DNA of 48,993 nt from Victivallis vadensis (lineage in GTDB: Bacteria > Verrucomicrobiota > Lentisphaeria > Victivallales > GWF2-50-93), in the NCBI GenBank assembly GCA_020718525.1, contig DYRX01000001.1, positions 1 through 48,993 on the forward strand. The letters are read 5' to 3'. The notes under the pieces are model-generated. The model made no database searches, had not been told where the DNA came from, and saw only the letters and a list, made by a program, of their open reading frames with translations. A program made the translations under genes and the position numbers. Shown piece after piece: positions 2,965 through 28,835 of this stretch (within the stretch, counting starts at the first letter, position 1; each line of letters begins with the position of its first letter).

Positions 2965-4167
2965 TCAGTGTGATCCGTATTTGTCCAGCGCCTCAAACAT
3001 TGCGGAAATGTTTTCAGGGCTGACATCGGGCTGGATGTTGTGCACCTGGCAGAAGACAAATCCCCCGCCTGGCGATAGGATGTCCAGGTTTCTCTTCACC
3101 GCTTCGGCGACTTCCGCTGGAGATTTCACGTTGAGAACTGTCTGCGTGTCAACCCCGCCGCCCCAAAACGAAATGTCCTTTCCAAAATCACGCTTGAGCT
3201 CTTTCAAGTCCATCCCCTTGGCGCTGAGCTGAACCGGATTGATCGCGTCAACACCAATTTCAATCAGGTCCGGGATAAATTCCCGCATTGCTCCGCATGA
3301 ATGGAAGAGAATCGGTTTTCCAAAAGACTTTTTTACATGGCGGAACAATTCCGATTGATATGGCTTGATCTTGTCCTTGTACAGGGATGGTGAAAGCATT
3401 GGTCCGTTCTGAGTGCCAAGATCGTCGTTGAGCAAAACAATATCCACTGCATCTTTCAGAAGCGGTGCAAGAGAATCCACTCTACGGAAATAGCCTTCCA
3501 TCAGGATCTCGAGCAGAGTCTTTGTCATCAGGTCGTCCGAAATCAGGTCCACCATGAACTGCTCGTATCCGCGCAGGAGCTGTCCTGCCGCCAGGATATG
3601 ACAGCAGAGGTTGAATACAACGCAGTCTCCGTCCGCATGCATCGCTTCCGCCCGCTTCCGGAGGCTTTCTAGCGGCTCGTCGGCGAAAGAAGGATAGTCG
3701 AATCCATAAATTGCCTCTTTATACTGCCAGATCTCTTTCGGATCTTCAATATGCTGAAGAGGCGGATTGATCGGATCAAAATAATAACCGCCTCTTGGCC
3801 GGCGCGCAACAGGAAGCCCGTCTGCCCGGCGCACTACGGTGTCTCCGGCATCATCCGTTTCTTCATTCCAGCCAGCAGGCAGAAGCACATCGAAGCCAAG
3901 AGGATGAGTTCCTTCAATCCAGGATCTCGGTTCCGGCGTCAGGTTGGCTGTGTCAATCCTGAATCTGGCCTTGAGCTCGCCTCCAGGATATGCCACGTAT
4001 TGATAGGGCTCGAAGATCTTCAGTCTTGATGAAATGTTCAATTTTCTCTGCAGGCTTGCAAGCGCAGGGGCTGTAATTCCTGACGACTCAGTGCCTCCAA
4101 GATCGCGTGGAATCCTGTCGGACTCCTGATGCTTCAGCGCCATTAAAACTCTTTCCCTGGAATTCAT
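2965..4167 (-). CDS. uroporphyrinogen decarboxylase (URO-D) family protein, MtaA/CmuA-like, not canonical HemE
   Basis: The track ORF 2965..4494 has a 109-aa N-terminal extension overlapping the upstream gene. The internal ATG at 4167 (MNSRERVLMALKHQESDRIP, a typical URO-D-family N-terminus) forms an ATGA overlap with the upstream stop. It lacks the HemE PVWxMRQAGR motif. Confidence 0.75.
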   Translation of the reverse strand: MNSRERVLMALKHQESDRIPRDLGGTESSGITAPALASLQRKLNISSRLKIFEPYQYVAYPGGELKARFRIDTANLTPEPRSWIEGTHPLGFDVLLPAGWNEETDDAGDTVVRRADGLPVARRPRGGYYFDPINPPLQHIEDPKEIWQYKEAIYGFDYPSFADEPLESLRKRAEAMHADGDCVVFNLCCHILAAGQLLRGYEQFMVDLISDDLMTKTLLEILMEGYFRRVDSLAPLLKDAVDIVLLNDDLGTQNGPMLSPSLYKDKIKPYQSELFRHVKKSFGKPILFHSCGAMREFIPDLIEIGVDAINPVQLSAKGMDLKELKRDFGKDISFWGGGVDTQTVLNVKSPAEVAEAVKRNLDILSPGGGFVFCQVHNIQPDVSPENISAMFEALDKYGSH

Positions 4168-5129
4168 TGCCTTTCCTTTCGTGGAGAAATTTGCCCGGAT
4201 CTGCTCCTGCGCTCCAGATCCAGCCACCTGCGATGAGCCCACATCCATTGCTCCGGAACCCGCGCAATGATGCGTTCGAGCGCCGCCGTGTATGCCTGAG
4301 TCAGACATTTGATGTCCTCGTCCCTGTCGCCAGAGGCTTTTCTGACAATCACTTCCTCTACTATGAACTCGAAATTGAAGTCCTCGCTGGTCCTGATCAG
4401 CCCCCCCACGAGAATAGGTATTCCAGTCTTCAGATGGAGCCCGGCCGGAGCAATATGGCTCCTTGCCGGATGGCCGAAAAAGACTGTCTCGCATCCTTCA
4501 CTTGTCGAGGCGTGCTGATCCGAAACGAAACAGACGCTTTTCCCCTTTTTGACGGCGTCAACCAATGCCCTCATCGCGCCTTTCTTGTGGACTACGCTGT
4601 GCCTCGAGCTTATTCTGTCGTTTTCAAGCACCTTGCCTATCATCGGGTTGTCGAATGGTCTCATTATGGTGAGCATCTCCCTGCCGGAAAGCATTGTATA
4701 GGCGGTGCCGGCAACCTCCCAGTTGCCAAAGTGCCCTGTGATGACGATGAGCTGTTCAGAAGGCTTTCCATCTCCGCCGAAGGCGCTCGCAACAAAATCC
4801 GGTCTCCCGCTTGTTGATATTTTCGAGCGGATATTGTCCCTGCCGACGAATTGGCTGAACTTGACAATTTCTACAAAAAGCATTGCGAAATGCGCAAAGT
4901 TCCTCTTTGCCATGCTTTTCGCCTCGTCTTCATTCTTGGCGACTCCTGCGTGCAGAAGATTCCGGATAATCCTTCTTCTGTGCACAAAATCTGCGAAATA
5001 CGCAATTCTGGCAATGCATTTCGCGATGAGATACGAAATGCGGAGCGAGAGGGATCTCAAAATAATTCTTGCCAGAGCGAAGAACGAATATTCAATGACG
5101 ATCTGAATGCGGCTTTTCCCGTGCTTCAT
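4164..5129 (-). CDS. LpxL/HtrB-type lipid A (lysophospholipid) acyltransferase family protein
   Basis: 321 aa with an N-terminal membrane anchor and an HX4D/E acyltransferase motif (GHFGNWE). ATGA overlaps at both ends. Confidence 0.7.
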   Translation of the reverse strand: MKHGKSRIQIVIEYSFFALARIILRSLSLRISYLIAKCIARIAYFADFVHRRRIIRNLLHAGVAKNEDEAKSMAKRNFAHFAMLFVEIVKFSQFVGRDNIRSKISTSGRPDFVASAFGGDGKPSEQLIVITGHFGNWEVAGTAYTMLSGREMLTIMRPFDNPMIGKVLENDRISSRHSVVHKKGAMRALVDAVKKGKSVCFVSDQHASTSEGCETVFFGHPARSHIAPAGLHLKTGIPILVGGLIRTSEDFNFEFIVEEVIVRKASGDRDEDIKCLTQAYTAALERIIARVPEQWMWAHRRWLDLERRSRSGQISPRKERQ

Positions 5130-6622
5130 GGCTCTGTTCCAGCTCCTGGAAGAGTCTTCTCATGAACCTGGGACTCCTGGATCTTCGCGTTTGCAGATTT
5201 GCCAGCAGGCATGAATGGAGTCATGGCGCTCAGCATGAGCCAGGCGCCAATCAGCGCAATCAGCGACGAGAGGAAGCCAAGCTTGAGCCAGTAGAAAAAA
5301 CTTACATGCAGGTGAGACTTGCGCTCAAGCATACCAAGGGCGACTATGTTCGCGGTGCTTCCAATCATGGTTATGTTTCCACCAAAGCACGCGCCAAAAA
5401 GCAGAGCCCACCACAAAGGAAAGACATTGACAGACTTCGAGAGCTCCTCGATGACCGGACAGAACGCCGCGACAAAGATCACGTTGTCAACAAACGCCGA
5501 GCCAAGAGCCGAAATTGACAGAATCATCGGGACCAGAGTGTTCAAATCATGTCCGCAGACCTTCGAAAAACCATGCGCCATGACTCTGGTGACGCCAGTA
5601 TGCTCCAGCGTTCCTGCGACGGCAAAAAGGAGCATGAAGAAAAGAAGCGTCCACCAGTCAACCTCGTGCTCGACATAATGCCTTGCCCTGTCTCTTTTTA
5701 TGATCATGATGACTCCCGCGCAGACAAGCGGGGCGATAAGAAGGATGCTGTTGGTGTCCAGCCCCAGACGGCTTTCGATCTGATGGTGCGAGGCGATGAA
5801 TGCGATAGTGAGAAGAAGCAGTGCAAGCCCCTGGCGGTAAGGGACCTGGACTTTTGGAGCAAGCCCGAGATCACGGGAGAGCCTGTCCTTGAGCCTGCGG
5901 TCGAATTCGTCGAGATCCTTTCTGAAGTAGAAAAAGCAGAAAAGCTCCGTTAGAAAAAGGCAGACCAGCATGCATGGAAACGCCCAGATCATGAAATCCT
6001 CGAAGGTCAAATGCGCCTTTGTCCCTATGTAGATGCCGACCGGATTGCCCATCATGGTGCCGGCGCTTCCAACGTTTGTTGCCAAGACCGCCATGATGAC
6101 ATAGGGGGCTGGGCTGAGCTTGAGCCTGTCGCAGACCTGGAAGATGAGAGTAGAAACAAATATGATCGAGGTGACTTCATCAACCGCACAGGCGAGAAGC
6201 GCAGAAGCGGTCGCAGTCGCCGCCATGAAGCGCCTCGCGCTTATATTGGGCATTGACACTATGAGCTGGACGACCCAGGTGAAGAAACCAAGATCCCGCA
6301 GTGCGCCAACGATGATCATCATCCCGACAAGAAAGAGTATCACCTCGAGCGCGGCGGACTGGACAAATGACGGGATGCTGAGCGAATGCGAGCAGATCAG
6401 CACGGCAAGCCCGATGAAGGCGATGGCAAGACGGAAGTTCCAGAAAAAAAGCGTGCCCAGAATAATTCCGACAAAGACGCCGGAAGCCACTGACTGAAGC
6501 GGGTCAAAGACGTAGATGCGCCCCAGAATTCCGACGGAGAGGCTGAGGAGGAGAAGGATGCCGAGCCTCTTGATCAGCGACGAGATTCCTATGTCAGAAC
6601 TGCTTTCCGCCGTTTCACTCAT
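5126..6622 (-). CDS. ArsB/NhaD (SLC13/CitMHS-like) anion/ion permease
   Basis: 498 aa and polytopic. Repeated GxxxTxIGSxANIV-type segments (GGNITMIGSTANIVALG, SAGTMMGNPVGIYIG) are typical of this permease superfamily. Confidence 0.7.
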   Translation of the reverse strand: MSETAESSSDIGISSLIKRLGILLLLSLSVGILGRIYVFDPLQSVASGVFVGIILGTLFFWNFRLAIAFIGLAVLICSHSLSIPSFVQSAALEVILFLVGMMIIVGALRDLGFFTWVVQLIVSMPNISARRFMAATATASALLACAVDEVTSIIFVSTLIFQVCDRLKLSPAPYVIMAVLATNVGSAGTMMGNPVGIYIGTKAHLTFEDFMIWAFPCMLVCLFLTELFCFFYFRKDLDEFDRRLKDRLSRDLGLAPKVQVPYRQGLALLLLTIAFIASHHQIESRLGLDTNSILLIAPLVCAGVIMIIKRDRARHYVEHEVDWWTLLFFMLLFAVAGTLEHTGVTRVMAHGFSKVCGHDLNTLVPMILSISALGSAFVDNVIFVAAFCPVIEELSKSVNVFPLWWALLFGACFGGNITMIGSTANIVALGMLERKSHLHVSFFYWLKLGFLSSLIALIGAWLMLSAMTPFMPAGKSANAKIQESQVHEKTLPGAGTEP

Positions 6623-6629
6623 CAGCGTT

Positions 6630-7565
6630 TCACTCCCAGAATATTTGCGAGAAGAAGGAGGACAATTCTATGGTGCCTGCGAATTTCCCACTTTTGAGTA
6701 CGATGATCTGGCGGATTTTCTGCATAAGAAAAATCTTCGCCACCTGAATGGCGGGCAAATCGCCTTCGACTGCCACGTAGTCGTCTCTCATGATGTCTGC
6801 AAGCTTTGTCTCAGAGTCTTTTTTCAGAAGCTCTGCAAATGGCTGGAAGCGCAGTATGGGGGAGAGATCCTCCATCCAAAGAAGGTGCTCGGGCAGGCTA
6901 GCCTTGAGGATGTCCTCGATGGAGATCTGGCCCCTGACATCTCCATCGGAATCTACGATTGGAATGTCCATCGTCTTCCGCGTCGCAAAAGTCTCTATCA
7001 AAGTCTTAAGGCTGTCCCCCTCCTCGAGAACCGGATTTTTTTTCGACGCGAGATCCATCGCCGTGATGTAGTCGGGGACCGCCTCGCTGTACTTGGAAAG
7101 CAGAGCAAGCAGTTCGGAGGGAGACTTCGCTTCAGAGATCCGTTGAAGATCTGAATCGTTCTTGAACTCCTTCGCCAGCGCCGATATGACCTTGAGATGC
7201 GCCGCCGGATCCTGCTTCGGGCTTATCACAAGAACCACAATATTGACTGGTGGCATGCTGGACGCATTGAAATCAATGCCCCTCGGAGAAGTGCCCAACG
7301 CGACGGAAACCGTTTTCAAACCGTCGAATCTCGCATGGGGAACCGCCAGTCCTTTTGCAATGACCGTCGGCATAAGATCTTCGCGGGTCATTACTGCGGC
7401 GGCAATTTCTTCAGGGCTTATTCCAGGGACAGTTCTGGAAAGAGACGTCGCAAGTTCGAGCACCGCGCCACGGCTTGTCGCCGACGAGAGTCCGCATACA
7501 ATGTTCGCCTCGGCAATGTAGTCAATGAAATGAAGCTCGGGCGCCTTGCTTTTCTGCATTTGCAT
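6630..7565 (-). CDS. PTS EIIA(Ntr/Fru)-type domain fused to a CBS-domain pair (regulatory protein)
   Basis: The N-terminal 150 aa carry the EIIA-2 phospho-His region (KGLAVPHARF). The C-terminal half has two CBS-like repeats (IPIVDSDGDVRGQISIEDIL; IIVLKSGKFAGTIELSSF). The gene lies 7 nt upstream of the permease. Confidence 0.7.
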   Translation of the reverse strand: MQMQKSKAPELHFIDYIAEANIVCGLSSATSRGAVLELATSLSRTVPGISPEEIAAAVMTREDLMPTVIAKGLAVPHARFDGLKTVSVALGTSPRGIDFNASSMPPVNIVVLVISPKQDPAAHLKVISALAKEFKNDSDLQRISEAKSPSELLALLSKYSEAVPDYITAMDLASKKNPVLEEGDSLKTLIETFATRKTMDIPIVDSDGDVRGQISIEDILKASLPEHLLWMEDLSPILRFQPFAELLKKDSETKLADIMRDDYVAVEGDLPAIQVAKIFLMQKIRQIIVLKSGKFAGTIELSSFFSQIFWE

Positions 7566-17472: not shown

Positions 17473-19404
17473 CTATGCGTTTTCGTTGAAGGTGAGTTCC
17501 TCGCCGGTGCGGACAAGTCTTGCGCTGTTGAAAATGATTATGATGGTGCTTGCCGTGTGGAGAATTGCGGCGGCGATCGGCGGCATCCAGCCGAATACGG
17601 AAAGGCTTATTCCGCCTATGATGAACAGGAAGCCCAGAAAAATGTTCTGGGCGATGATTGCGCTTGACTTGCGCGCAAGAACAATCAGCATGGGGACTCT
17701 ACGCAAGTCGTTTGTCATCAATGCTATAGAGGCGCTGTCAATGGCAATGTCGCTTCCTATCGCACCCATTGCAATTCCAAGGTCGCCCGCTGTAAGCGCA
17801 GGGGCGTCGTTCACTCCATCGCCCACCACTGCGACATGTGAGATTTTCTTCATTTCCTTTACGTACCTGACCTTGTCGTCTGGGAGACACTGGGATCTGA
17901 AGTCACCGATGCCGAGGCTTCTCGCCACGATTTCCGCGACTGAATTTCTGTCTCCAGTGACCATGGAGCAGTTTTTGACGCCTATGTCGAAGAGTCCGCG
18001 TATTGCGTCGTGAGCCTCTTTGCGGACCGTGTCCTTAAAACCGATCCAGCCGATGTTTCGTCCGCCTTTGGAGACATGCACAACGCTCATGACGACATCC
18101 TCGACATCTGTTCCGGGACCTGAGATTGGCGAAGACGATTCGTGAAATTTTTCAACCCACTCCTTTCGACCGATTCTGCAGAGTTCGCCTTTGTAGTCTG
18201 CGCTGACGCCTTTTCCGTGTTCTTCTGCGAAATCGGCGACATCGTCAATTTTGAGACCAGCCTCGGCGGCAAGCTGCTGAAGGGCCTTTGCGGTCGGGTG
18301 ATTGCTGTGCTGTTCGACTGAAGCCGCGATTTTCAGCAGTTCGGCGGGCTGGATGCCTTCGGCTGGTTCAAGTCTGGCGACGGAAAGCTTACCCTCAGTC
18401 AAAGTTCCGGTCTTGTCGAATATCACGGTTCTGATTTTTGCCGCCATTTCGAGATATGAGACGTCTTTTATGAGAATTCCTAGTCTGGCGGCGGCGGCGA
18501 GAGACGCGACGATTGCCGAAGGAGATGCCAGAACAAGCGCACAGGGGCAGGATATGACCAGAATGGCGATCACATTCTCCATTTTTCCCATGAAAAGCCA
18601 GGTGAGTCCGGCGATCATGAGAATCGTCGGCGTATAGAATCCGGCGTATTTGTCTATAAGGCGAATGATGGGGGGGCGACTGCTCTCGGCCGCGAGAATC
18701 AGATCCTGGATTTTGCCAAGTGTCGTGTCGCGTCCAGCCTTGGTGACCTCGATCTCAATGGCGCCTGTCATGTTTTGAGTGCCTGCAAAGACGTCATTTC
18801 CGCATTCCTTTTCTACAGGGAGAGATTCGCCCGTGATTGATGCCTGATTGACTGTGCTGTTGCCTTTTCTGACGACACCGTCAACGGGAAAATTTTCTCC
18901 GGGGCGGATTCGTATGAGATCGCCGACTTTGAGGCTTGCGACATCCGTTTCTATCTCCTGCCCGTCCTCGACTTTTCTTGCGACATGCGGCATGAGCCTG
19001 ATAATTTTCTCGATTGATTTCTGTGCGCCGCTGGCAGTTTTAGTCTCGATGATCACCGAGAGGAGGAGGAAGAAGGAGATGATTCCGGCAGTTCTGAAGT
19101 CGCCTCCTGCCATTGCGGCAAGAACGGCAAGGGAAACCAGCTCGTTCATGTGGATGAGGCCTTTTGCCAGGTCGAAGACTGCAACTTTGAAAAGGGGGAA
19201 CGCCATTATTAGCGCCCCTGCCATGGCGCTGAGATCGGCGGCAAGCGTCTGATCCGGCTGGAGCCAGTTCAGCAAATAGGAGTTGACAATGAAAAACGCT
19301 CCTACGAGAGCGGTACCAAGACGCCCCAGGCTTCTCGGATGCCCGGGATCTTCGGAATCATGGTCGTGCGAATGGCCGCAAAGGCAGACTTTCTTGTCTG
19401 ACAT
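17473..19404 (-). CDS. heavy-metal translocating P1B-type ATPase (Zn/Cd/Co-type), no HMA domain, His-rich N-terminus
   Basis: Motifs: TGES, CPC (ISCPCALVLASP), DKTGTLT and GDGVNDAPAL. The N-terminus reads CLCGHSHDHDSEDPGHP. Confidence 0.9.
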   Translation of the reverse strand: MSDKKVCLCGHSHDHDSEDPGHPRSLGRLGTALVGAFFIVNSYLLNWLQPDQTLAADLSAMAGALIMAFPLFKVAVFDLAKGLIHMNELVSLAVLAAMAGGDFRTAGIISFFLLLSVIIETKTASGAQKSIEKIIRLMPHVARKVEDGQEIETDVASLKVGDLIRIRPGENFPVDGVVRKGNSTVNQASITGESLPVEKECGNDVFAGTQNMTGAIEIEVTKAGRDTTLGKIQDLILAAESSRPPIIRLIDKYAGFYTPTILMIAGLTWLFMGKMENVIAILVISCPCALVLASPSAIVASLAAAARLGILIKDVSYLEMAAKIRTVIFDKTGTLTEGKLSVARLEPAEGIQPAELLKIAASVEQHSNHPTAKALQQLAAEAGLKIDDVADFAEEHGKGVSADYKGELCRIGRKEWVEKFHESSSPISGPGTDVEDVVMSVVHVSKGGRNIGWIGFKDTVRKEAHDAIRGLFDIGVKNCSMVTGDRNSVAEIVARSLGIGDFRSQCLPDDKVRYVKEMKKISHVAVVGDGVNDAPALTAGDLGIAMGAIGSDIAIDSASIALMTNDLRRVPMLIVLARKSSAIIAQNIFLGFLFIIGGISLSVFGWMPPIAAAILHTASTIIIIFNSARLVRTGEELTFNENA

Positions 19405-20558
19405 CAGTTCTCTCCCGCTTTCTTTTCGGCGCCGTCTTTTTTGTAGTCGGGTTCCGGACTCAGCATTATTCTCAGCTCCTGGGTTTCATTTGAGTGCACA
19501 TCGGGAACGATGTATTTGTCTTTTACATCCCGGAGCAGGGAAACCAAGGTCTCGGAGTAGAGCGGTATGATTACAGACTCGGGATTTTTCCTGTATTCGA
19601 CGAGGATTTTTTCGAAGTACTTGGACTCCGACTCGATTTCGGAGACTGTCCTGCTTCTATAAACTTCGGCATCAACGATTATTTCGCGGCTTTCGGTTTC
19701 CGATTCCTGAGCGGATTTGAAGGAGTAGTTGATAGCCTTCAGCTTTGCGCTGGAGCTCTCCTGCTCGGCGTTGATCACGTCATGGAAGGCGGAAACTGTG
19801 CTGAATGGAGGAGTCTTCGATTTGAGGACGGCGGAACTGAGCTCGACTCCCGCATTTAATGCCTGGAATGCGGAGGCGATTCTGCGGCTCACGTCCTCTT
19901 GGTAGCCTGTCACATCCTTGTAGAGCGTGTTCTCCACTTTTTGAACCGCTGTCGCCTTGATGATTTCATTCTCGACAATAGAAGCCAGGGTCGTCCGCGG
20001 TCCGCGCGTTCCTGCAGATCTTCCGTCGTCCCTCAAGACAGGCTCGTCCTCGGAGCGTGGATCCTGGGGGCAGAACAGCTTGCTGTAGTATGCGAGAGGA
20101 TCTTTCACTTCATAGACTATTTCCCATTCGGTGTGGACGATGTTTGCATCGCCAGTGAGAAGCGAGCCGTCACGTCCGGGCATGATGGGCACCGCCATTT
20201 TGCTGAGGGCATCCTGCTCGTCGGTCATTGAGACATCTGGATTGGGCCAGAAATTTTTTATCTGCATGACCTGCCTGCTGGTTGGGATTCTTACAATTCT
20301 GCTGACGGGATACGGGAAAGCCCAGTGCCAGTCTTCGGTGAAGACTTCGCTTATTTTTCCGAATCTGAGAAGGATCACAGCCTCCTGCGGGTCGACAGTG
20401 AAATATCCGAGGAAGGTGAAATACCAGGCGACAGTCCCCATGACGAAGAGCGTGAGCAGGGCGACGACGTATCGAAAGGATCTTGCCAGCGCGTTCAGGC
20501 CGGAGCCGATTCCGCTCTCCCTTTCCAAGGACTCTTTTTCGTTGTTTTCCAAAATCAT
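19404..20558 (-). CDS. SPFH/band-7 protein, HflK-like
   Basis: 384 aa with a single N-terminal TM and an SPFH core (VDPQEAVILLRFGKISEVF..). Its stop TGA (19406-19404) shares one nt with the ATPase ATG. Confidence 0.7.
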   Translation of the reverse strand: MILENNEKESLERESGIGSGLNALARSFRYVVALLTLFVMGTVAWYFTFLGYFTVDPQEAVILLRFGKISEVFTEDWHWAFPYPVSRIVRIPTSRQVMQIKNFWPNPDVSMTDEQDALSKMAVPIMPGRDGSLLTGDANIVHTEWEIVYEVKDPLAYYSKLFCPQDPRSEDEPVLRDDGRSAGTRGPRTTLASIVENEIIKATAVQKVENTLYKDVTGYQEDVSRRIASAFQALNAGVELSSAVLKSKTPPFSTVSAFHDVINAEQESSSAKLKAINYSFKSAQESETESREIIVDAEVYRSRTVSEIESESKYFEKILVEYRKNPESVIIPLYSETLVSLLRDVKDKYIVPDVHSNETQELRIMLSPEPDYKKDGAEKKAGEN

Positions 20559-20592
20559 TTTCTCTCTTTCCGCTGTGACGGAGGAATTTTAG

Positions 20593-21570
20593 CTACTTTG
20601 ATGTTCCCGGCGCATCGTCATTCTTGAGCGGTGCCTTCAGCCCCATCGCCGGATCGTCCATGTTCAGGAGATCGAATGGCGGATAGCGCGTATTGAGGAT
20701 GAGTGTCGTTTTCTTGGGCATGATTTTGCGCAGTGAGTCGAGTTTTCTGAGGAAGTCCGCGAGAGCCGGATCCTGCTTGAATACAGAGTAGTAGGAGGCG
20801 GCCTTTGCATCGCCCTCGGCTCGTATGCGCTTTGCCTCAGCTTCCGCGTCGGCAATCTTGAGTTTCTTCTTGTTGTCCGCCTCGTTTATGATCTGCTTGG
20901 AGATGTTTTCGCCCTGCGAACGGTAGTGCTGAGCGACTATAGCCCTCTCCTCCTTCATCCTTTCAAAAACTTTTTCGGAAGTTTTTTCAGGCACTGCAAC
21001 TTGTTTGAATCCTATCTCTTCGACCGCGATGCCGTAGTCCTTCAGCGCGCTGTCCTTCACTCCGGCAAGAATTTCCTTCTCTATCTCGGAGATCTTCATC
21101 TTCTTCGGATCCGTGTTGATGAATTCGTCGAACTTGTACTTGCCAACAATCGCGTTTCTGACGCTTCTGACAAGGGAATTGAGCCTGTCTTCGGCGGAAA
21201 TAAATGTGCCGACATTTTTATAGAGAACGTCCGGTCTTTCGATTTTGTAGAGGCAATATGTGCTGATAATGAGATTTTTGGCATCCGCCGTGTAGGTTTC
21301 TTCGATTTTTCCGCTAGAGCCGGCAAAACAGCGCAGGCGATTGTCGAATTTTATGACCTTCTGTATCGGATAGGGCCATTTGAAATGGAGACCGGCTTCC
21401 TTTATTCCGCTTATTTTACCGAAAGTGGTCAGAACTGCGGTTTCAGTTGAATCCACCTGATAGCAGAATATCGCCGCCAAAAAAATCGTCAGCACCAACA
21501 ATCCCAAAAATAGCGATGGGATATGGCTGACTGCACCAGTTTTTTCAATTTCATGCTTGTGTTCGCTCAT
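20593..21570 (-). CDS. SPFH/band-7 protein, HflC-like
   Basis: 325 aa with an N-terminal TM, an SPFH core (VDSTETAVLTTFGKISGIKEAGLHFKWPYPIQKV) and a coiled-coil tail (ADAEAEAKRIRAEGDAKAA). Confidence 0.8.
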   Translation of the reverse strand: MSEHKHEIEKTGAVSHIPSLFLGLLVLTIFLAAIFCYQVDSTETAVLTTFGKISGIKEAGLHFKWPYPIQKVIKFDNRLRCFAGSSGKIEETYTADAKNLIISTYCLYKIERPDVLYKNVGTFISAEDRLNSLVRSVRNAIVGKYKFDEFINTDPKKMKISEIEKEILAGVKDSALKDYGIAVEEIGFKQVAVPEKTSEKVFERMKEERAIVAQHYRSQGENISKQIINEADNKKKLKIADAEAEAKRIRAEGDAKAASYYSVFKQDPALADFLRKLDSLRKIMPKKTTLILNTRYPPFDLLNMDDPAMGLKAPLKNDDAPGTSK

Positions 21571-21585
21571 ATTTTCGACTCCGTT

Positions 21586-23505
21586 TTATTTTTTCGTGCC
21601 GGAACTTCCGCCAGAGATGTCCACCAAATCCGCCTCCATCAGATCCAGCCGCGCCTTTTCCTCGAAATTAAGGATGAAGACGTTGTGCGGTATGGAACTC
21701 GCTATGACGAGCTTTCTTATCATCTTGCAGTCGTTCTCGAAGAAGTCCAGATAATGTCTGAGTCTGAACATCTGGGGCATGCGCCTGTAGGCATCAAGCT
21801 GTTTGAGGAAACGGGCATTCTCGGCTTCTGCAAGCTTCTCAGCGTTGGTCGCTCCAGTCTTGCTGTCGAGAATGATCCTGGCGACCTCGCTTTCGATCTC
21901 GTTGGCAAGTTTGGACTCGTATTTTTTGGCGGAAAGAATCTTTGTCTCCTTCTCTTCCAGTGCGCCGACGACCTCCTGAAACGACGGGGCGACCTGTTCA
22001 GTTGGCGGATGCGAATCGAGAAAATTCAGGGAAACAATTTCCACGCCCAGCTTCAGCCTGTCGCAAGCGCCTTGGAGAATTCTATGGAGATCTCCGATCA
22101 TCATGCTTCTGTCAAGCGACATCGCCTTTATGATGTCAACCGACGCGAGATACTTGCCAATTTCCTGTTCTGCAAGATCCTTGAGAATCTCAGGGCTGTC
22201 TCTGTGCATGTAGGCGTAGTCAATGAGCCCGCCTTCCTTTATCTTGAACTGGATTGGAAACGCCGCAGCCAAGAATGAGACCGGGGCATCGTCTCCTGAG
22301 ACCTCCTTCGCTGAAGCCACAAGGAAGCGAGGCTCCTTCGCGTAATGCTGTTTTGTCCAGAGAATCACCTCGGGAAGCTCCTTCCTGCCCTTTTCCTCCT
22401 TGAATTCGGGTCCAATGACAATCTCCTGAATTTTACGGACTGGGAATCTTGATATTTTTTCGACAGGCCAAGGCGCTTTGAAATGGATTCCCGGCTGAAG
22501 AAGAGGTGAATCCTGGCGCTTTCCGAAAAATTCCCTGACGCCCACTTCGTCGGTTTTCACTTCGACGATGCTGGTGAAAAGCCAGAGCGCGCCAAGCCAG
22601 ACGAGCAAAATTGGAACAAGAGCCGACTCGGCGAAATTGAAGAGCTCCCTGCGCCCGACGCGGAAGCCGAACTGATACTCGAGCGTGTCAAAAAGCCCCT
22701 TGGCCAGCCCGCCAGGATCCGATGCTATGGAAAGAAGCCTGCTCTCGAAAAACAAAGAATCGTCTCCTGCCCGCTTCGGGCGGTAGAACTCGACAATGAA
22801 GTTCAACAGCAGTTCGGCGGCAAGAATCACATATACGATCAGAAGGAACTTTGCCGTCCTGCCGTCCCAGGCGGTGTAGGCGAACTTGGAGAGAAGAATG
22901 GAGAGAGATACGAGCATTCCCATGCCAAAGACGGCGACGAGCCAGCTTCCGGCCGGACGCAGGGTTCTGAACGATCTGGACTTCGACTGGCCAACAAGAA
23001 AAATTCCTGCGAAGAGCGAAACTATGGAAAGCAGAGCCGATGCGAATGCGCATTGCAGAGCGTTGCGGGGCTCCAGAGGCTTCAGCCTCGCACCCCAATG
23101 CTTCCAAAATAGATAGGAGAGGCCGAGGAGCGCGATGAACTCCGCCAGCGCAATCGCGTAGGGAGAATATTTCTTGTATAGCCTCAATGCCCTCTGAGAA
23201 AGGAAAAGCGCGTCCACGTCCGCGTCAAGCGCCATCTTTTCGCGCCTCTTCTCGATGGCAACCCTCTCCTCCTCCTCCTTGGAGGAATTCTCCTCGAAAT
23301 GTCCAATGATGGCGGAATTGATCAAAAGCAGGAAGGCTACAATAAAGGGGATAGAGAGGGCGGCGAAGGAGTCGAATGCGACTAGTCCCGAACTCCAGGT
23401 GAAAAAGACCAGGCCTGCTGACAGCAGTGAAAGGATGGCGCATACGACCGAAAGCTTCCTGAGCAGTCTAGACTCCTCGCTCCAAATTTGAAGATTTCTG
23501 TCCAT
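21586..23505 (-). CDS. polytopic membrane protein (about 7 TM) with C-terminal SPFH/HflK-like domain
   Basis: 639 aa. Multiple hydrophobic helices occupy the first 315 aa. Then VKTDEVGVREFFGKRQDSPLLQPGIHFKAPWPVEKI, an SPFH core, and a coiled-coil tail. Confidence 0.7.
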   Translation of the reverse strand: MDRNLQIWSEESRLLRKLSVVCAILSLLSAGLVFFTWSSGLVAFDSFAALSIPFIVAFLLLINSAIIGHFEENSSKEEEERVAIEKRREKMALDADVDALFLSQRALRLYKKYSPYAIALAEFIALLGLSYLFWKHWGARLKPLEPRNALQCAFASALLSIVSLFAGIFLVGQSKSRSFRTLRPAGSWLVAVFGMGMLVSLSILLSKFAYTAWDGRTAKFLLIVYVILAAELLLNFIVEFYRPKRAGDDSLFFESRLLSIASDPGGLAKGLFDTLEYQFGFRVGRRELFNFAESALVPILLVWLGALWLFTSIVEVKTDEVGVREFFGKRQDSPLLQPGIHFKAPWPVEKISRFPVRKIQEIVIGPEFKEEKGRKELPEVILWTKQHYAKEPRFLVASAKEVSGDDAPVSFLAAAFPIQFKIKEGGLIDYAYMHRDSPEILKDLAEQEIGKYLASVDIIKAMSLDRSMMIGDLHRILQGACDRLKLGVEIVSLNFLDSHPPTEQVAPSFQEVVGALEEKETKILSAKKYESKLANEIESEVARIILDSKTGATNAEKLAEAENARFLKQLDAYRRMPQMFRLRHYLDFFENDCKMIRKLVIASSIPHNVFILNFEEKARLDLMEADLVDISGGSSGTKK

Positions 23506-23739: not shown

Positions 23740-24672
23740 TCAGACTGCACCTGGCAATGACTGTTTGCATGGGGTGGACCGATCGCCAAGCTCAAACTGT
23801 AGCGTGGCATGGCATATTCCAAAGCGTTCATGGAGTTCGTTGCTGATTTCAGCAAGAAGCGCATCGTCAACGACAGCGTCCGGCTTCACCAGGTGCGCTG
23901 TCAATGCCACTTCAGTCGTGCTTATGGCCCAGATATGCAGATCATGTACCGCACTGACCCCAGGAAGAGCTTCGAGGTAGGCGGCGACTTCAGCAGGCTG
24001 TATATTTTCTGGAACGGCATCAAGCGCAAGCCTGAGCGATTCGCGCAGAAGCCCCCAAGTTCCGAAGCCGATGACAAGAGATATTGCAAGGCTCACTGCG
24101 GGATCCAGGAAAAGCCATCCCGTGAGACTCATTGCAATTGCCGCGATGACGACTCCAAATGAGACTCCCGCATCTGCCGCCATATGCAGATAGGCGCCAC
24201 GGATATTTACGTCCTGCTCTTTGCCCGACATGAACATGTATGCTGTGAACCCGTTGACAAGGATTCCGACGGAGGCAACAACGATGACCGAAGCGCTCGC
24301 GACTGTTTCAGGATGAACAATTCTGAGGATGGATTCCCAGGCGATGCCACCAACGGCAAGGAGCAGGATAACACAATTAGCCAATGCCGCCAAAACAGAA
24401 CTTCGTCGCAGACCATAGGTGTAGCGCAACGTCGGATGCCTTTGAGCCAGGACGCTGGCGCCCCATGCCAGCAGAAGCCCAAAAACATCGCCGAGATTGT
24501 GTCCGGCATCCGCCAAGAGAGAAAGAGAATTGGAAAGTAGGGCAACAATAGCCTCAACTGCAACGAAAGCAACATTGATCCCGACTCCGACAGCAAAGGC
24601 GCGGTTAAAATTTTTGGGAGCATGACTGTGTCCAGATTCCTCTCCATCTGCGTGGGAATGACTGTGCCCCAT
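23740..24672 (-). CDS. cation diffusion facilitator (CDF) metal exporter, CzcD/ZitB-like
   Basis: His-rich N-terminus MGHSHSHADGEESGHSH. TM2 LLADAGHNLGD and TM5 HMAADAG metal-site motifs. The ATG at 24672 is preceded by AAGGAGG; the track ORF extends to 24738. Confidence 0.9.
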   Translation of the reverse strand: MGHSHSHADGEESGHSHAPKNFNRAFAVGVGINVAFVAVEAIVALLSNSLSLLADAGHNLGDVFGLLLAWGASVLAQRHPTLRYTYGLRRSSVLAALANCVILLLAVGGIAWESILRIVHPETVASASVIVVASVGILVNGFTAYMFMSGKEQDVNIRGAYLHMAADAGVSFGVVIAAIAMSLTGWLFLDPAVSLAISLVIGFGTWGLLRESLRLALDAVPENIQPAEVAAYLEALPGVSAVHDLHIWAISTTEVALTAHLVKPDAVVDDALLAEISNELHERFGICHATLQFELGDRSTPCKQSLPGAV

Positions 24673-24869
24673 TAGATGTCCTCCTTTTTTTGTAGAACTT
24701 GAGATTGCCAAACGAGTTATATTGAGACGGGATGTCAAGTGTTGAACTTTATCTCACACGAAGACAATAAGCGCCTGAAGCAAAGAAAAGCCTTGCCGGT
24801 TTGATACTCGCCCATTGTGGTGCATATAATACATGAAATAATCCAATTAAACACTGACAGACGGACAAA

Positions 24870-25637
24870 TTATTGGCAGATTGTACGGCATCCGCCATAA
24901 AACACGAAGTTGGCGGTTTTCGCCTGCATATGCGTCAGAAGGCTTTCTACACCGATAGCATGTCTGGGCAGATCGGCTGGAGCCAAATCCGGAGATGAGT
25001 CGTTTGGAATCAGATAGGCTTTTCCCATGTATTCCAATCCATGTCCAGTCGTATAGATGACAGCAATGTCAGACTGCCTTGTTTTAAGAGAAAAAGTCCT
25101 GAGGGCTTTCTCAAGCTCTTCATGTGTTGGATCCAAAGCTGTCACTGTTTCAAAGCCGGCCCTTGCAAAAGCCTGCGAAATTCGCGACAGATCATTCTTC
25201 GCCCCTGGCAAGGTTCCGAGGGAAGCTTTACTGCTGTAGTCCGAGAAGACAAAAACAAATGCGACCCGCTTTGCCGCCGTGTCGCGCAAATCTTGCCGCT
25301 CGGTATTTCCTGACGCCGCGAGCACTTTGATCTCCGGCTCTTGGAGTCCGTCGCTCTTTAATTTTGTGAGGGCATTCATTTCAGCCCGCAATTCCAGGAA
25401 ACTGAGGGAAGGACGCGCAAGCAGTTCTATCAAAGCCGAGGCAAAGGGATTTCCCCCTTCCTCCGCCTGATCAAATGTCGGAAGACCCGCCTGCGAAGCA
25501 AAAAATACAATGGCTGAAGCTGGCGGATTCGGCACCGAGACTGCAGGCTCATCAGCCGCCGAGTGCATGGCATGGGCAGAGAAGAATAAAGCGATAAGAA
25601 TCGCATTAAACAATGTGCCGGAACGAAAGCTTTTCAT
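24870..25637 (-). CDS. secreted caspase-like (peptidase C14, clan CD) protein, apparently circularly permuted
   Basis: Signal peptide present. The C-terminal half carries the p20-like core: RVAFVFVFSDYS..LPGAKNDLSRISQAFARAGFE, IAVIYTTGHG (catalytic His) and NFVFYGGCRT (catalytic Cys, 5 aa before the stop). The N-terminal half (IVFFASQAG..GGNPFASALIELL..) resembles the segment that normally follows the Cys. Confidence 0.6.
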   Translation of the reverse strand: MKSFRSGTLFNAILIALFFSAHAMHSAADEPAVSVPNPPASAIVFFASQAGLPTFDQAEEGGNPFASALIELLARPSLSFLELRAEMNALTKLKSDGLQEPEIKVLAASGNTERQDLRDTAAKRVAFVFVFSDYSSKASLGTLPGAKNDLSRISQAFARAGFETVTALDPTHEELEKALRTFSLKTRQSDIAVIYTTGHGLEYMGKAYLIPNDSSPDLAPADLPRHAIGVESLLTHMQAKTANFVFYGGCRTICQ

Positions 25638-25657
25638 AAGAAAAATTCCCTGCGCGT

Positions 25658-28835
<3,178 letters not shown>

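Follow-up and report, generated by a model that had tools for sequence, protein, structure and literature searches.

We have identified in Victivallis vadensis (Verrucomicrobiota; Lentisphaeria; Victivallales) a gene whose product we take, with considerable confidence, to be a naturally occurring circular permutant of a caspase/paracaspase protease domain (MEROPS family C14, clan CD), in which the p10-like half of the fold precedes the p20-like catalytic half, and for which a mechanism and an origin are proposed below. The gene lies in a stretch of 48,993 nucleotides (assembly GCA_020718525.1, contig DYRX01000001.1, positions 1 to 48,993 of the forward strand), hereafter called the window, and is a complete open reading frame (ORF) of 255 codons plus a stop at 24870..25637 on the minus strand, as given by the ORF list and its translation; its product matches itself at 100% as entry P0001 in our homologue search. 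An earlier, sequence-only reading of this DNA had proposed a secreted, p10-p20 circularly permuted C14 protease, and every motif string that it quoted is present in the translated minus-strand ORF. The permutation itself is borne out by the Pfam score of the re-permuted protein (69.1 bits), by profile-profile comparison with hhalign, by AlphaFold2 (AF2) modelling with Foldseek searches, and by the same order of halves in 235 of 262 fetched relatives.

Along its 255-residue chain the protein carries a signal peptide, then p10-like elements in the order β5-α4-α5-β6, and then a p20 core running from β1 to β4 (all coordinates given here are on the minus strand). The Sec-type signal peptide, residues 1-23 (25569..25637), was called from the starting MKSFR, a hydrophobic helix at residues 7-23 and an AHA preceding the next Met; AF2 renders residues 7-23 as helical with a low predicted local distance difference test score (pLDDT) of 55-65. 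The term "secreted" in the sequence-only reading is thus upheld to the extent of a signal-peptide-like N-terminus, the call being heuristic and made by inspection only. A spacer of about 14-19 residues, variable across the family alignment, separates the signal peptide from β5, and the segment IVFFASQAGLPTFDQAEEGGNPFASALIELL... begins past both, at residue 43. The p10-like half spans residues 38-107 (25317..25526), with β5 at 41-46, α4 at 64-73, α5 at 80-94 and β6 at 102-107, as delimited by AF2, hhalign and the re-permutation test with Pfam, and it corresponds to the segment placed after the catalytic Cys in ordinary C14 proteins. It contains the invariant family signature GGNPFAS (residues 61-67, 25437..25457), which starts α4 and is equivalent to the NSPF[TA] of normal-order relatives, as well as the invariant Asp56 (25470..25472), a putative S1-pocket determinant five residues past the invariant Gly51.

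A 16-residue connector (residues 108-123, 25269..25316), variable in the family alignment and modelled as coil with pLDDT 82-87, joins the old C-terminus at the end of β6 to the old N-terminus at the start of β1. The p20-like catalytic core, β1-α1-β2-α2-β3-hairpin-α3-β4, follows at residues 124-255 (24873..25268) and was delimited by Pfam, by phmmer and profile matches to the paracaspase MALT1, and by AF2. Its first residues, 124-135, are RVAFVFVFSDYS, and LPGAKND occupies 143-149. The last of these, the invariant Asp149 (25191..25193), aligns with the S1-pocket residue Asp365 of MALT1 in a phmmer match to 3v4o_A, with a numbering consistent with H415 and C464. The catalytic His199 (25041..25043), in YTTGHG (195-200), is invariant and aligned to the "aGHG" of MALT1 (H415), and the catalytic Cys250 (24888..24890), in FYGGCRT (246-252), is likewise invariant and aligned to MALT1 C464. 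The chain ends five residues past Cys250, in R-T-I-C-Q-stop, just as the sequence-only reading had stated. PF00656 is the only Pfam domain in this single-domain protein of 255 residues, which is devoid of death or Ig domains. In the window protein a second Cys, Cys254, stands four residues after Cys250 (GGCRTICQ; residues 250-255, 24873-24890), and a disulfide between C250 and C254 could serve as a redox switch.

The Pfam model PF00656 (Peptidase_C14) scores 61.6 bits against the native protein (cutoff 21.4) and aligns residues 124-251 with profile positions 2-128 of 233, so that what matches at the C-terminal end of the chain is only the first half of the model. Where the sequence-only reading anticipated two C14 matches in swapped order, one was found: the half-model match in the swapped position, rather than a collinear normal C14 domain, stands, and a separate match for the N-terminal half does not. 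In the re-permutation test, the C-terminal half was placed before the N-terminal half, joined by a GGGS linker, and rescored with PF00656. The re-permuted window protein gave a single collinear match over profile positions 2-224 of 233 at 69.1 bits, compared with 52.2 bits for the C-terminal half alone and 53.2-54.2 bits when three shuffled N-terminal halves were used.

The N-terminal half by itself has no match in Pfam and no significant sequence match in the PDB, and its homology therefore had to be established by profile-profile and structural evidence. For the former, the family N-terminal half was compared by hhalign with the regions following p20 in 33 normal-order units, which had been delimited without any p10 model. 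The two profiles aligned over 65 columns with a probability of 97.9% and an E value of 4.4e-13, and the reversed control gave 0.3%; the earlier suggestion that the N-terminal part resembles the segment following the catalytic Cys is in this way confirmed. The alignment pairs the family pattern "..fyAsQsG..TLDqgegGGNPFASALiELL" with "ayAa..G..A.DG.g.nSPFt.ALl..L" of the ordinary relatives, placing Asp56 on the conserved Asp of "A.DG" and GGNPFA on nSPFt. Additionally, a hidden Markov model (HMM) of the p10 half directly matches the post-Cys segments of normal-order units (P0351, 33.4 bits, independent E value 1.8e-6). When the re-permuted protein and one normal-order relative were searched with phmmer against the PDB, the alignments reached the Cys only, and the p10 part was not aligned to MALT1.

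The predicted structures are consistent with these alignments. The AF2 model of the window protein, built from a 30-sequence alignment, has a pLDDT of 88.5 and a predicted template modelling score (pTM) of 0.82, and that of P0097, an alphaproteobacterial member with 38% identity, has a pLDDT of 93.7 and a pTM of 0.90. In the window model the strand and two helices of the p10-like half and its second strand come first, followed by the connector, by β1-α1-β2-α2-β3-hairpin-α3-β4 at residues 124-247, and by Cys250; as modelled, this is the caspase topology rotated, with β5-α4-α5-β6 leading. Foldseek was run against the PDB with alignments in sequence order, and entries of circularly permuted caspase-2 (cpCasp2) served as a built-in control. 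For both models the top four matches were engineered cpCasp2 chains (8VP4, 9C2Y; 244-265 columns, TMq 0.60-0.71, E values down to 6e-10), and these were the only PDB chains to align full-length and in sequence order with either model. MALT1 and natural caspases aligned over about 124-158 columns only, the p20 half, with TMq 0.35-0.48; the Foldseek probability to caspases and MALT1 was 1.00 for both models. The structural comparison suggested by the sequence-only reading has thus returned a caspase fold in rotated order in two models, with permuted caspase-2 as the best full-length match.

The layout is not peculiar to the window. A word-indexed search with a threshold of E≤1e-3 yielded 332 homologues; the top 120 are about 245 residues long, cover 78-99% of the query and all carry PF00656. 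An exhaustive profile search of 1.84 billion representatives gave 267 clusters at E≤1e-30; among the 262 relatives fetched, 235 have p10 before p20, 18 are normal-order tandem proteins, and nine are p20-only fragments of 129-269 residues, mostly short gene calls (P0365 carries an unrelated C-terminal tail). The survey of homologues that had been advised therefore answers in favour of the permuted order, and since the homologues keep the same layout, it lies far beyond chance. In diverse alignments of 30-40 sequences, the invariant positions include G51, D56, G61-S67 (GGNPFAS), D149, T197-G200 (TGHG) and G249-R251 (GCR). Among the 235 permuted proteins, GGNPFA is found in 207, TGHG in 183, and a Cys motif of the form [GA][GA]CR in at least 224; the Cys is never followed by His. 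The chains end right after a conserved C-R-x-N-P-F motif, and the tail beyond the catalytic Cys has a median of seven residues. A signal-peptide-like hydrophobic 12-mer lies upstream of the first conserved motif in 93 of 119 homologues, and in 104 of the 119 the mature part contains one Cys only, which would suit the enzyme to an oxidising compartment.

When one genome per species was scanned, 91 loci turned up among 185,579 genomes, distributed over more than 10 phyla. Most belong to Alphaproteobacteria (Hyphomicrobiaceae, Hyphomonadaceae, Sphingomonadales), and the others to Geomonas, Acidobacteriota, Gemmatimonadota, Nitrospirota, Thiomargarita, Methylococcaceae, Bacteroidota, Cyanobacteriota, Kiritimatiellae, Chloroflexia, Nanopelagicales and Eisenbacteria. 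The permuted gene is present in complete chromosomes too. Members are labelled in public databases as "caspase family protein", "peptidase C14 caspase catalytic subunit p20" or "hypothetical protein". The permuted family lacks an NCBIfam model of its own, and the one match there, to caspase_w_EACC1, stayed below threshold (34.8 bits, cutoff 140); a reading as a conflict system was considered and dropped, as the EACC1 context was not found. One member, P0322 (565 residues), has its permuted unit at 310-528, with the His motif TTGHS, behind an N-terminal region of about 300 residues that resembles an α/β-hydrolase/esterase, and shows that the permuted C14 unit can also occur as a module. In Geomonas paludis (L001, CP096574.1), three genes on the same strand (4045-4920, 5001-5798 and 6408-7298) place the permuted C14 gene between a Peptidase_M48 gene and one with a weak Peptidase_M23 match; this set, an arrangement not seen in other phyla, could be an envelope protease cluster.

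The 18 tandem proteins (P0339, P0342, P0345, P0346, P0349-P0351, P0358, P0363, P0366, P0367, P0371, P0373, P0375-P0377, P0379 and P0380) bear on the origin of the family. They are 480-950 residues long with 3-4 matched stretches, and consist of a signal peptide followed by p20-p10-p20-p10, that is, two units of normal order. Their motifs are D-A-C-R-[DN]-N-P-F at the Cys and N-S-P-F-[TA] at the helix, and C-R-[DN]-N-P-F is common to the tandem relatives and to the ends of the permuted proteins. In P0346, P0366, P0367, P0377 and P0380 the two units lie close together, and the permuted profile spans the junction between the p10 of unit 1 and the p20 of unit 2 in one stretch; residues 185-401 of P0346, for example, match positions 34-246 of the permuted profile at 89.8 bits. 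If a tandem protein lost its leading p20 and its trailing p10, the permuted layout would result. The family most likely arose once, from a tandem-duplicated, secreted relative of normal order that lost these two parts, and would then have spread patchily, as a gene standing by itself, over the bacterial phyla. Neither unit of the tandem proteins is consistently the nearer one to the permuted p20; whichever is catalytically intact usually scores better. The origin by duplication and truncation put forward in the sequence-only reading is accordingly plausible, in that secreted tandem proteins exist and five of them are matched across the junction.

The tandem proteins have features of their own. 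In many of them one unit has no catalytic Cys or His (DASR, DAAR, DANR or DAVR at the Cys motif; GYG for GHG), which suggests an active protease paired intramolecularly with a pseudo-protease, reminiscent of caspase-8/FLIP heterodimers. The p20-p10 linker of the tandem proteins bears a recurrent "(R/K)GLA(R/P)(V/I)E" motif, a possible site of autoprocessing after Arg; the permuted family has no counterpart of this entire linker.

The permuted order also suggests how the enzyme might work. Caspase zymogens stay inactive as long as the intersubunit linker, which runs from the Cys loop (L2) to β5, is uncut. There is no polypeptide between L2 and β5 in the permuted protein; the Cys loop ends in a free C-terminus and β5 begins from a free N-terminus, as in cleaved mature caspases and in reverse caspases. 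As these ends are free by construction, the protein should fold directly into an active-like state. In the mechanism that seems most likely, the chain would be exported unfolded via Sec and, once in the periplasm or the extracellular space, would fold into an active-like cysteine endopeptidase made of a single chain, an activating cleavage presumably not being needed because compartmentation would replace zymogen control. The preference at P1 is probably for basic residues, as the invariant acidic Asp149 (MALT1 Asp365) and Asp56 are predicted to occupy S1-pocket positions.

The full proposal, namely a bacterial "reverse caspase" that has no linker, is pre-activated, is rendered harmless through export, derives from tandem genes of a kind still extant and represents a second, independent C14 permutation at the same site, the one at which caspases are cut in self-activation, appears to us about evenly balanced between right and wrong. 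Against the main reading, of a natural permutant with the mechanism and origin proposed above, several observations can be set. The gain on re-permutation was clear for the window protein and P0023 only, marginal for P0003 of Geomonas paludis and absent for P0097, and it was this unevenness among members that led to the stronger profile-profile test. The tandem proteins are more distant relatives, with p20 scores of 55-88 bits against a within-family median of 172 bits, and their high rank partly reflects the summed scores of two units; they are evidence of available raw material and not of direct descent. The correspondence of Asp56 to caspase Arg341 and MALT1 Glu500 is a putative one, anchored on the invariant Gly51, and the position of MALT1 Asp462 ("DACR" in normal-order relatives) is Gly248 in the window protein, so the S1 pocket is not identical to that of MALT1. 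No neighbour is conserved across phyla at the examined loci, and hence there is no functional clue from context: the gene stands alone, and the only shared neighbours are housekeeping genes inside one clade of Alphaproteobacteria. Finally, MALT1 is active only on dimerisation, and the permuted family might be so too.

This last point leads to an alternative that we regard as possible, if somewhat doubtful, in which the permuted enzyme is not constitutively active and is instead regulated after export, for example by dimerisation through β6 as in MALT1 and the initiator caspases, by removal of the spacer as an L2'-like propeptide, by Ca2+ or by the redox state of its Cys. MALT1 paracaspase domains are indeed the closest solved sequence relatives, a variable spacer does sit between the signal peptide and β5, and the type III metacaspase GtMC2 requires both Ca2+ and N-terminal processing (PMC5756287); engineered caspases of the same topology, however, are active without processing (PMC7760212), and no Ca2+-binding p10 features of the metacaspase type were seen in the permuted family. 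The relationship to type III metacaspases raises a different and improbable alternative, that the family is a bacterial branch of these eukaryotic enzymes, as their ancestor or as a horizontal copy, and not an independent permutation. The two groups share the p10-before-p20 order (PMC3734836) and Pfam PF00656, but surveys record no type III metacaspase in prokaryotes (PMC3734836; about 11,000 bacterial p20 proteins in PMC6426788), and the nearest normal-order relatives of the family are the bacterial secreted "DACRDNPF...NSPF" proteins. The best PDB matches are MALT1 and then caspases, with no metacaspase among the 60 best PDB profile matches or in either Foldseek top 50. Metacaspases carry D-x-C-H-S-G at the Cys, whereas the family has [GA][GA]CR in at least 224 of the 235 proteins and a His after the Cys in none. 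The permuted family, closer to MALT1 and caspases than to metacaspases and different in its Cys motif, probably arose by a separate permutation at this same position.

The permutation has also to be set against two readings that deny it altogether. That the N-terminal half is an unrelated accessory domain, and the protein an early-ending, p20-only "orthocaspase", would explain why this half has neither a Pfam nor a significant PDB sequence match, and current classifications would indeed call the protein p20-only; yet the hhalign result, the direct HMM match to P0351, the collinear C14 match over positions 2-224 after rejoining, and the full-length structural matches of two AF2 models to circularly permuted caspase-2 leave it very unlikely. 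Less credible still is that the ORF is the decayed remnant of a tandem C14 gene, or an artefact of assembly or gene calling. Tandem p20-p10-p20-p10 genes do exist with the same order in their central part, but the p10-first unit begins at a start codon of its own, carries its own signal peptide, terminates at a position that is conserved, recurs as a gene of about 245 residues in 235 proteins, including in complete chromosomes, and retains invariant catalytic residues, while its flanks in the window contain no C14-like sequence and its base composition matches that of the window.

In the window, the permuted C14 gene is flanked on its 5' side by a glycoside hydrolase family 2 (GH2) β-galactosidase gene (25704-28805) and on its 3' side by a cation diffusion facilitator (CDF) efflux gene (23740-24738), all on the minus strand, and further genes nearby encode MurJ and SPFH proteins. 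Three successive SPFH/Band-7 domain genes lie at 19404-23505 on the minus strand and encode 384, 325 and 639 residues; the third of these products begins with a long region that passes through the membrane several times. Between the stop of the β-galactosidase gene and the start of the C14 gene, at about 25638-25662 on the minus strand, a hairpin, TTCCC-ACGCGCA-GGGAA, is followed by TTTTTCTT directly before the ATG. Its 3' arm overlaps an AGGGA Shine-Dalgarno-like motif, and the hairpin could be a terminator of the β-galactosidase gene, a translation-masking element, or both. A scan for promoters and terminators gave chance-level signals only and was uninformative. Recent horizontal acquisition of the C14 gene was considered and rejected as having no compositional signal (GC content 0.508 against 0.513 for the window). 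Elsewhere in the window, housekeeping genes point to Lentisphaerota, the best named matches of the PGI protein being from Lentisphaeria and Victivallales at 63-69% identity. The closest homologue of the PGI protein, P0121 (73% identity), is labelled "Candidatus Nanoarchaeia archaeon"; this label probably reflects a mis-binned contig of a metagenome-assembled genome, since all other named PGI matches are from Lentisphaeria or Victivallales.

Caspases are switched on by cleavage of the linker that connects the Cys loop to β5. The natural removal of this linker by permutation means that evolution reached a layout that was engineered between 1998 and 2020 for constitutively active caspases, probably independently of the algal type III metacaspases. 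The presumed duplication intermediates, the tandem proteins, coexist with the product, and cases in which duplication followed by truncation can be illustrated in this way as a source of circular permutants are rare. For classification, surveys that seek a metacaspase-type p10 report no prokaryotic C14 protein with p10 first, and the permuted family corrects such schemes. Compact (about 25 kDa), single-chain, single-Cys, exported proteases of the caspase fold are possible processing enzymes, provided that they are specific. These points will mainly concern specialists in caspase-family evolution and in protease engineering, and the eukaryotic C14 precedent tempers their impact.

That precedent is provided by the type III metacaspases of algae with secondary endosymbionts (e.g., GtMC2/GtMCA-III of Guillardia theta), whose natural p10-before-p20 order has been discussed as a circular permutation (Choi & Berges 2013, PMC3734836), and which reviews up to 2026 place in phytoplankton only. 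Like the permuted family, they have p10 first and no interdomain linker after the catalytic Cys, but they are eukaryotic, close to type I, Ca2+-dependent, Arg/Lys-specific and endowed with metacaspase p10 motifs (conserved Cys/Asp and a Ca2+-binding 280-loop), whereas the permuted family is bacterial and has a signal peptide, C-R-x-N-P-F and GGNPFAS. In the literature we found no description of a permuted bacterial caspase, orthocaspase or metacaspase. The novelty claimed in the sequence-only reading appears to hold for bacterial C14 proteins, and not for C14 as a whole, where the eukaryotic enzymes were already known to be p10-first. What appears to be undescribed so far is a bacterial, paracaspase-like, exported C14 family with the topology of a reverse caspase.

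Engineered "reverse" caspases-3 and -6 (Srinivasula et al. 1998, as cited in PMC7760212) and cpCasp2, a constitutively active single chain in which the small subunit precedes the large one via a Gly-Ser linker (PMC7760212), share their topology with the window protein: small-subunit elements, a short connector and a large subunit ending at the Cys loop, with the new ends located where L2 is cleaved. These engineered chains derive from animal caspases specific for Asp, and are cytosolic, constitutively active by design and only 14-16% identical to the window protein, which is natural, predicted to be exported and probably specific for basic residues; the likeness is one of topology only.

In sequence, the p20 core is best matched among solved structures by MALT1 (3v4o_A, profile E value 2.6e-8), ahead of all caspases. 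Features common to MALT1 (e.g., PDB 3V4O and 3UOA) and the window protein are GHG at the His, an Arg directly following the Cys, and an S1 Asp (D365, equivalent to Asp149). However, MALT1 is a cytosolic, eukaryotic protein of normal order with death and Ig domains, and has Asp462 two residues before the Cys, where the permuted family has Gly. The bacterial normal-order "DACRDNPF ... NSPF[TA]" proteins (P0339-P0380) share with the family the signal peptide, C-R-x-N-P-F, the NSPF/GNPF helix motif and a Q-x-P before β6, but run p20-linker-p10 with a linker of about 25-35 residues, often have two units of which one is often dead, and score much lower against the family HMM. Orthocaspases, or "metacaspase-like proteases" (e.g., MaOC1 of Microcystis), are likewise prokaryotic C14 proteins with a His-Cys dyad, and current schemes would file the permuted protein among them because a metacaspase-type p10 is not detected. 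Orthocaspases, though, are defined by an absent p10 and usually have C-terminal accessory domains, whereas here the p10-equivalent half is present, at the N-terminus. By profile, by its His and Cys and by its six-stranded fold, the permuted protein is a member of C14, and since its order departs from p20-p10, it is an architectural variant of that family.

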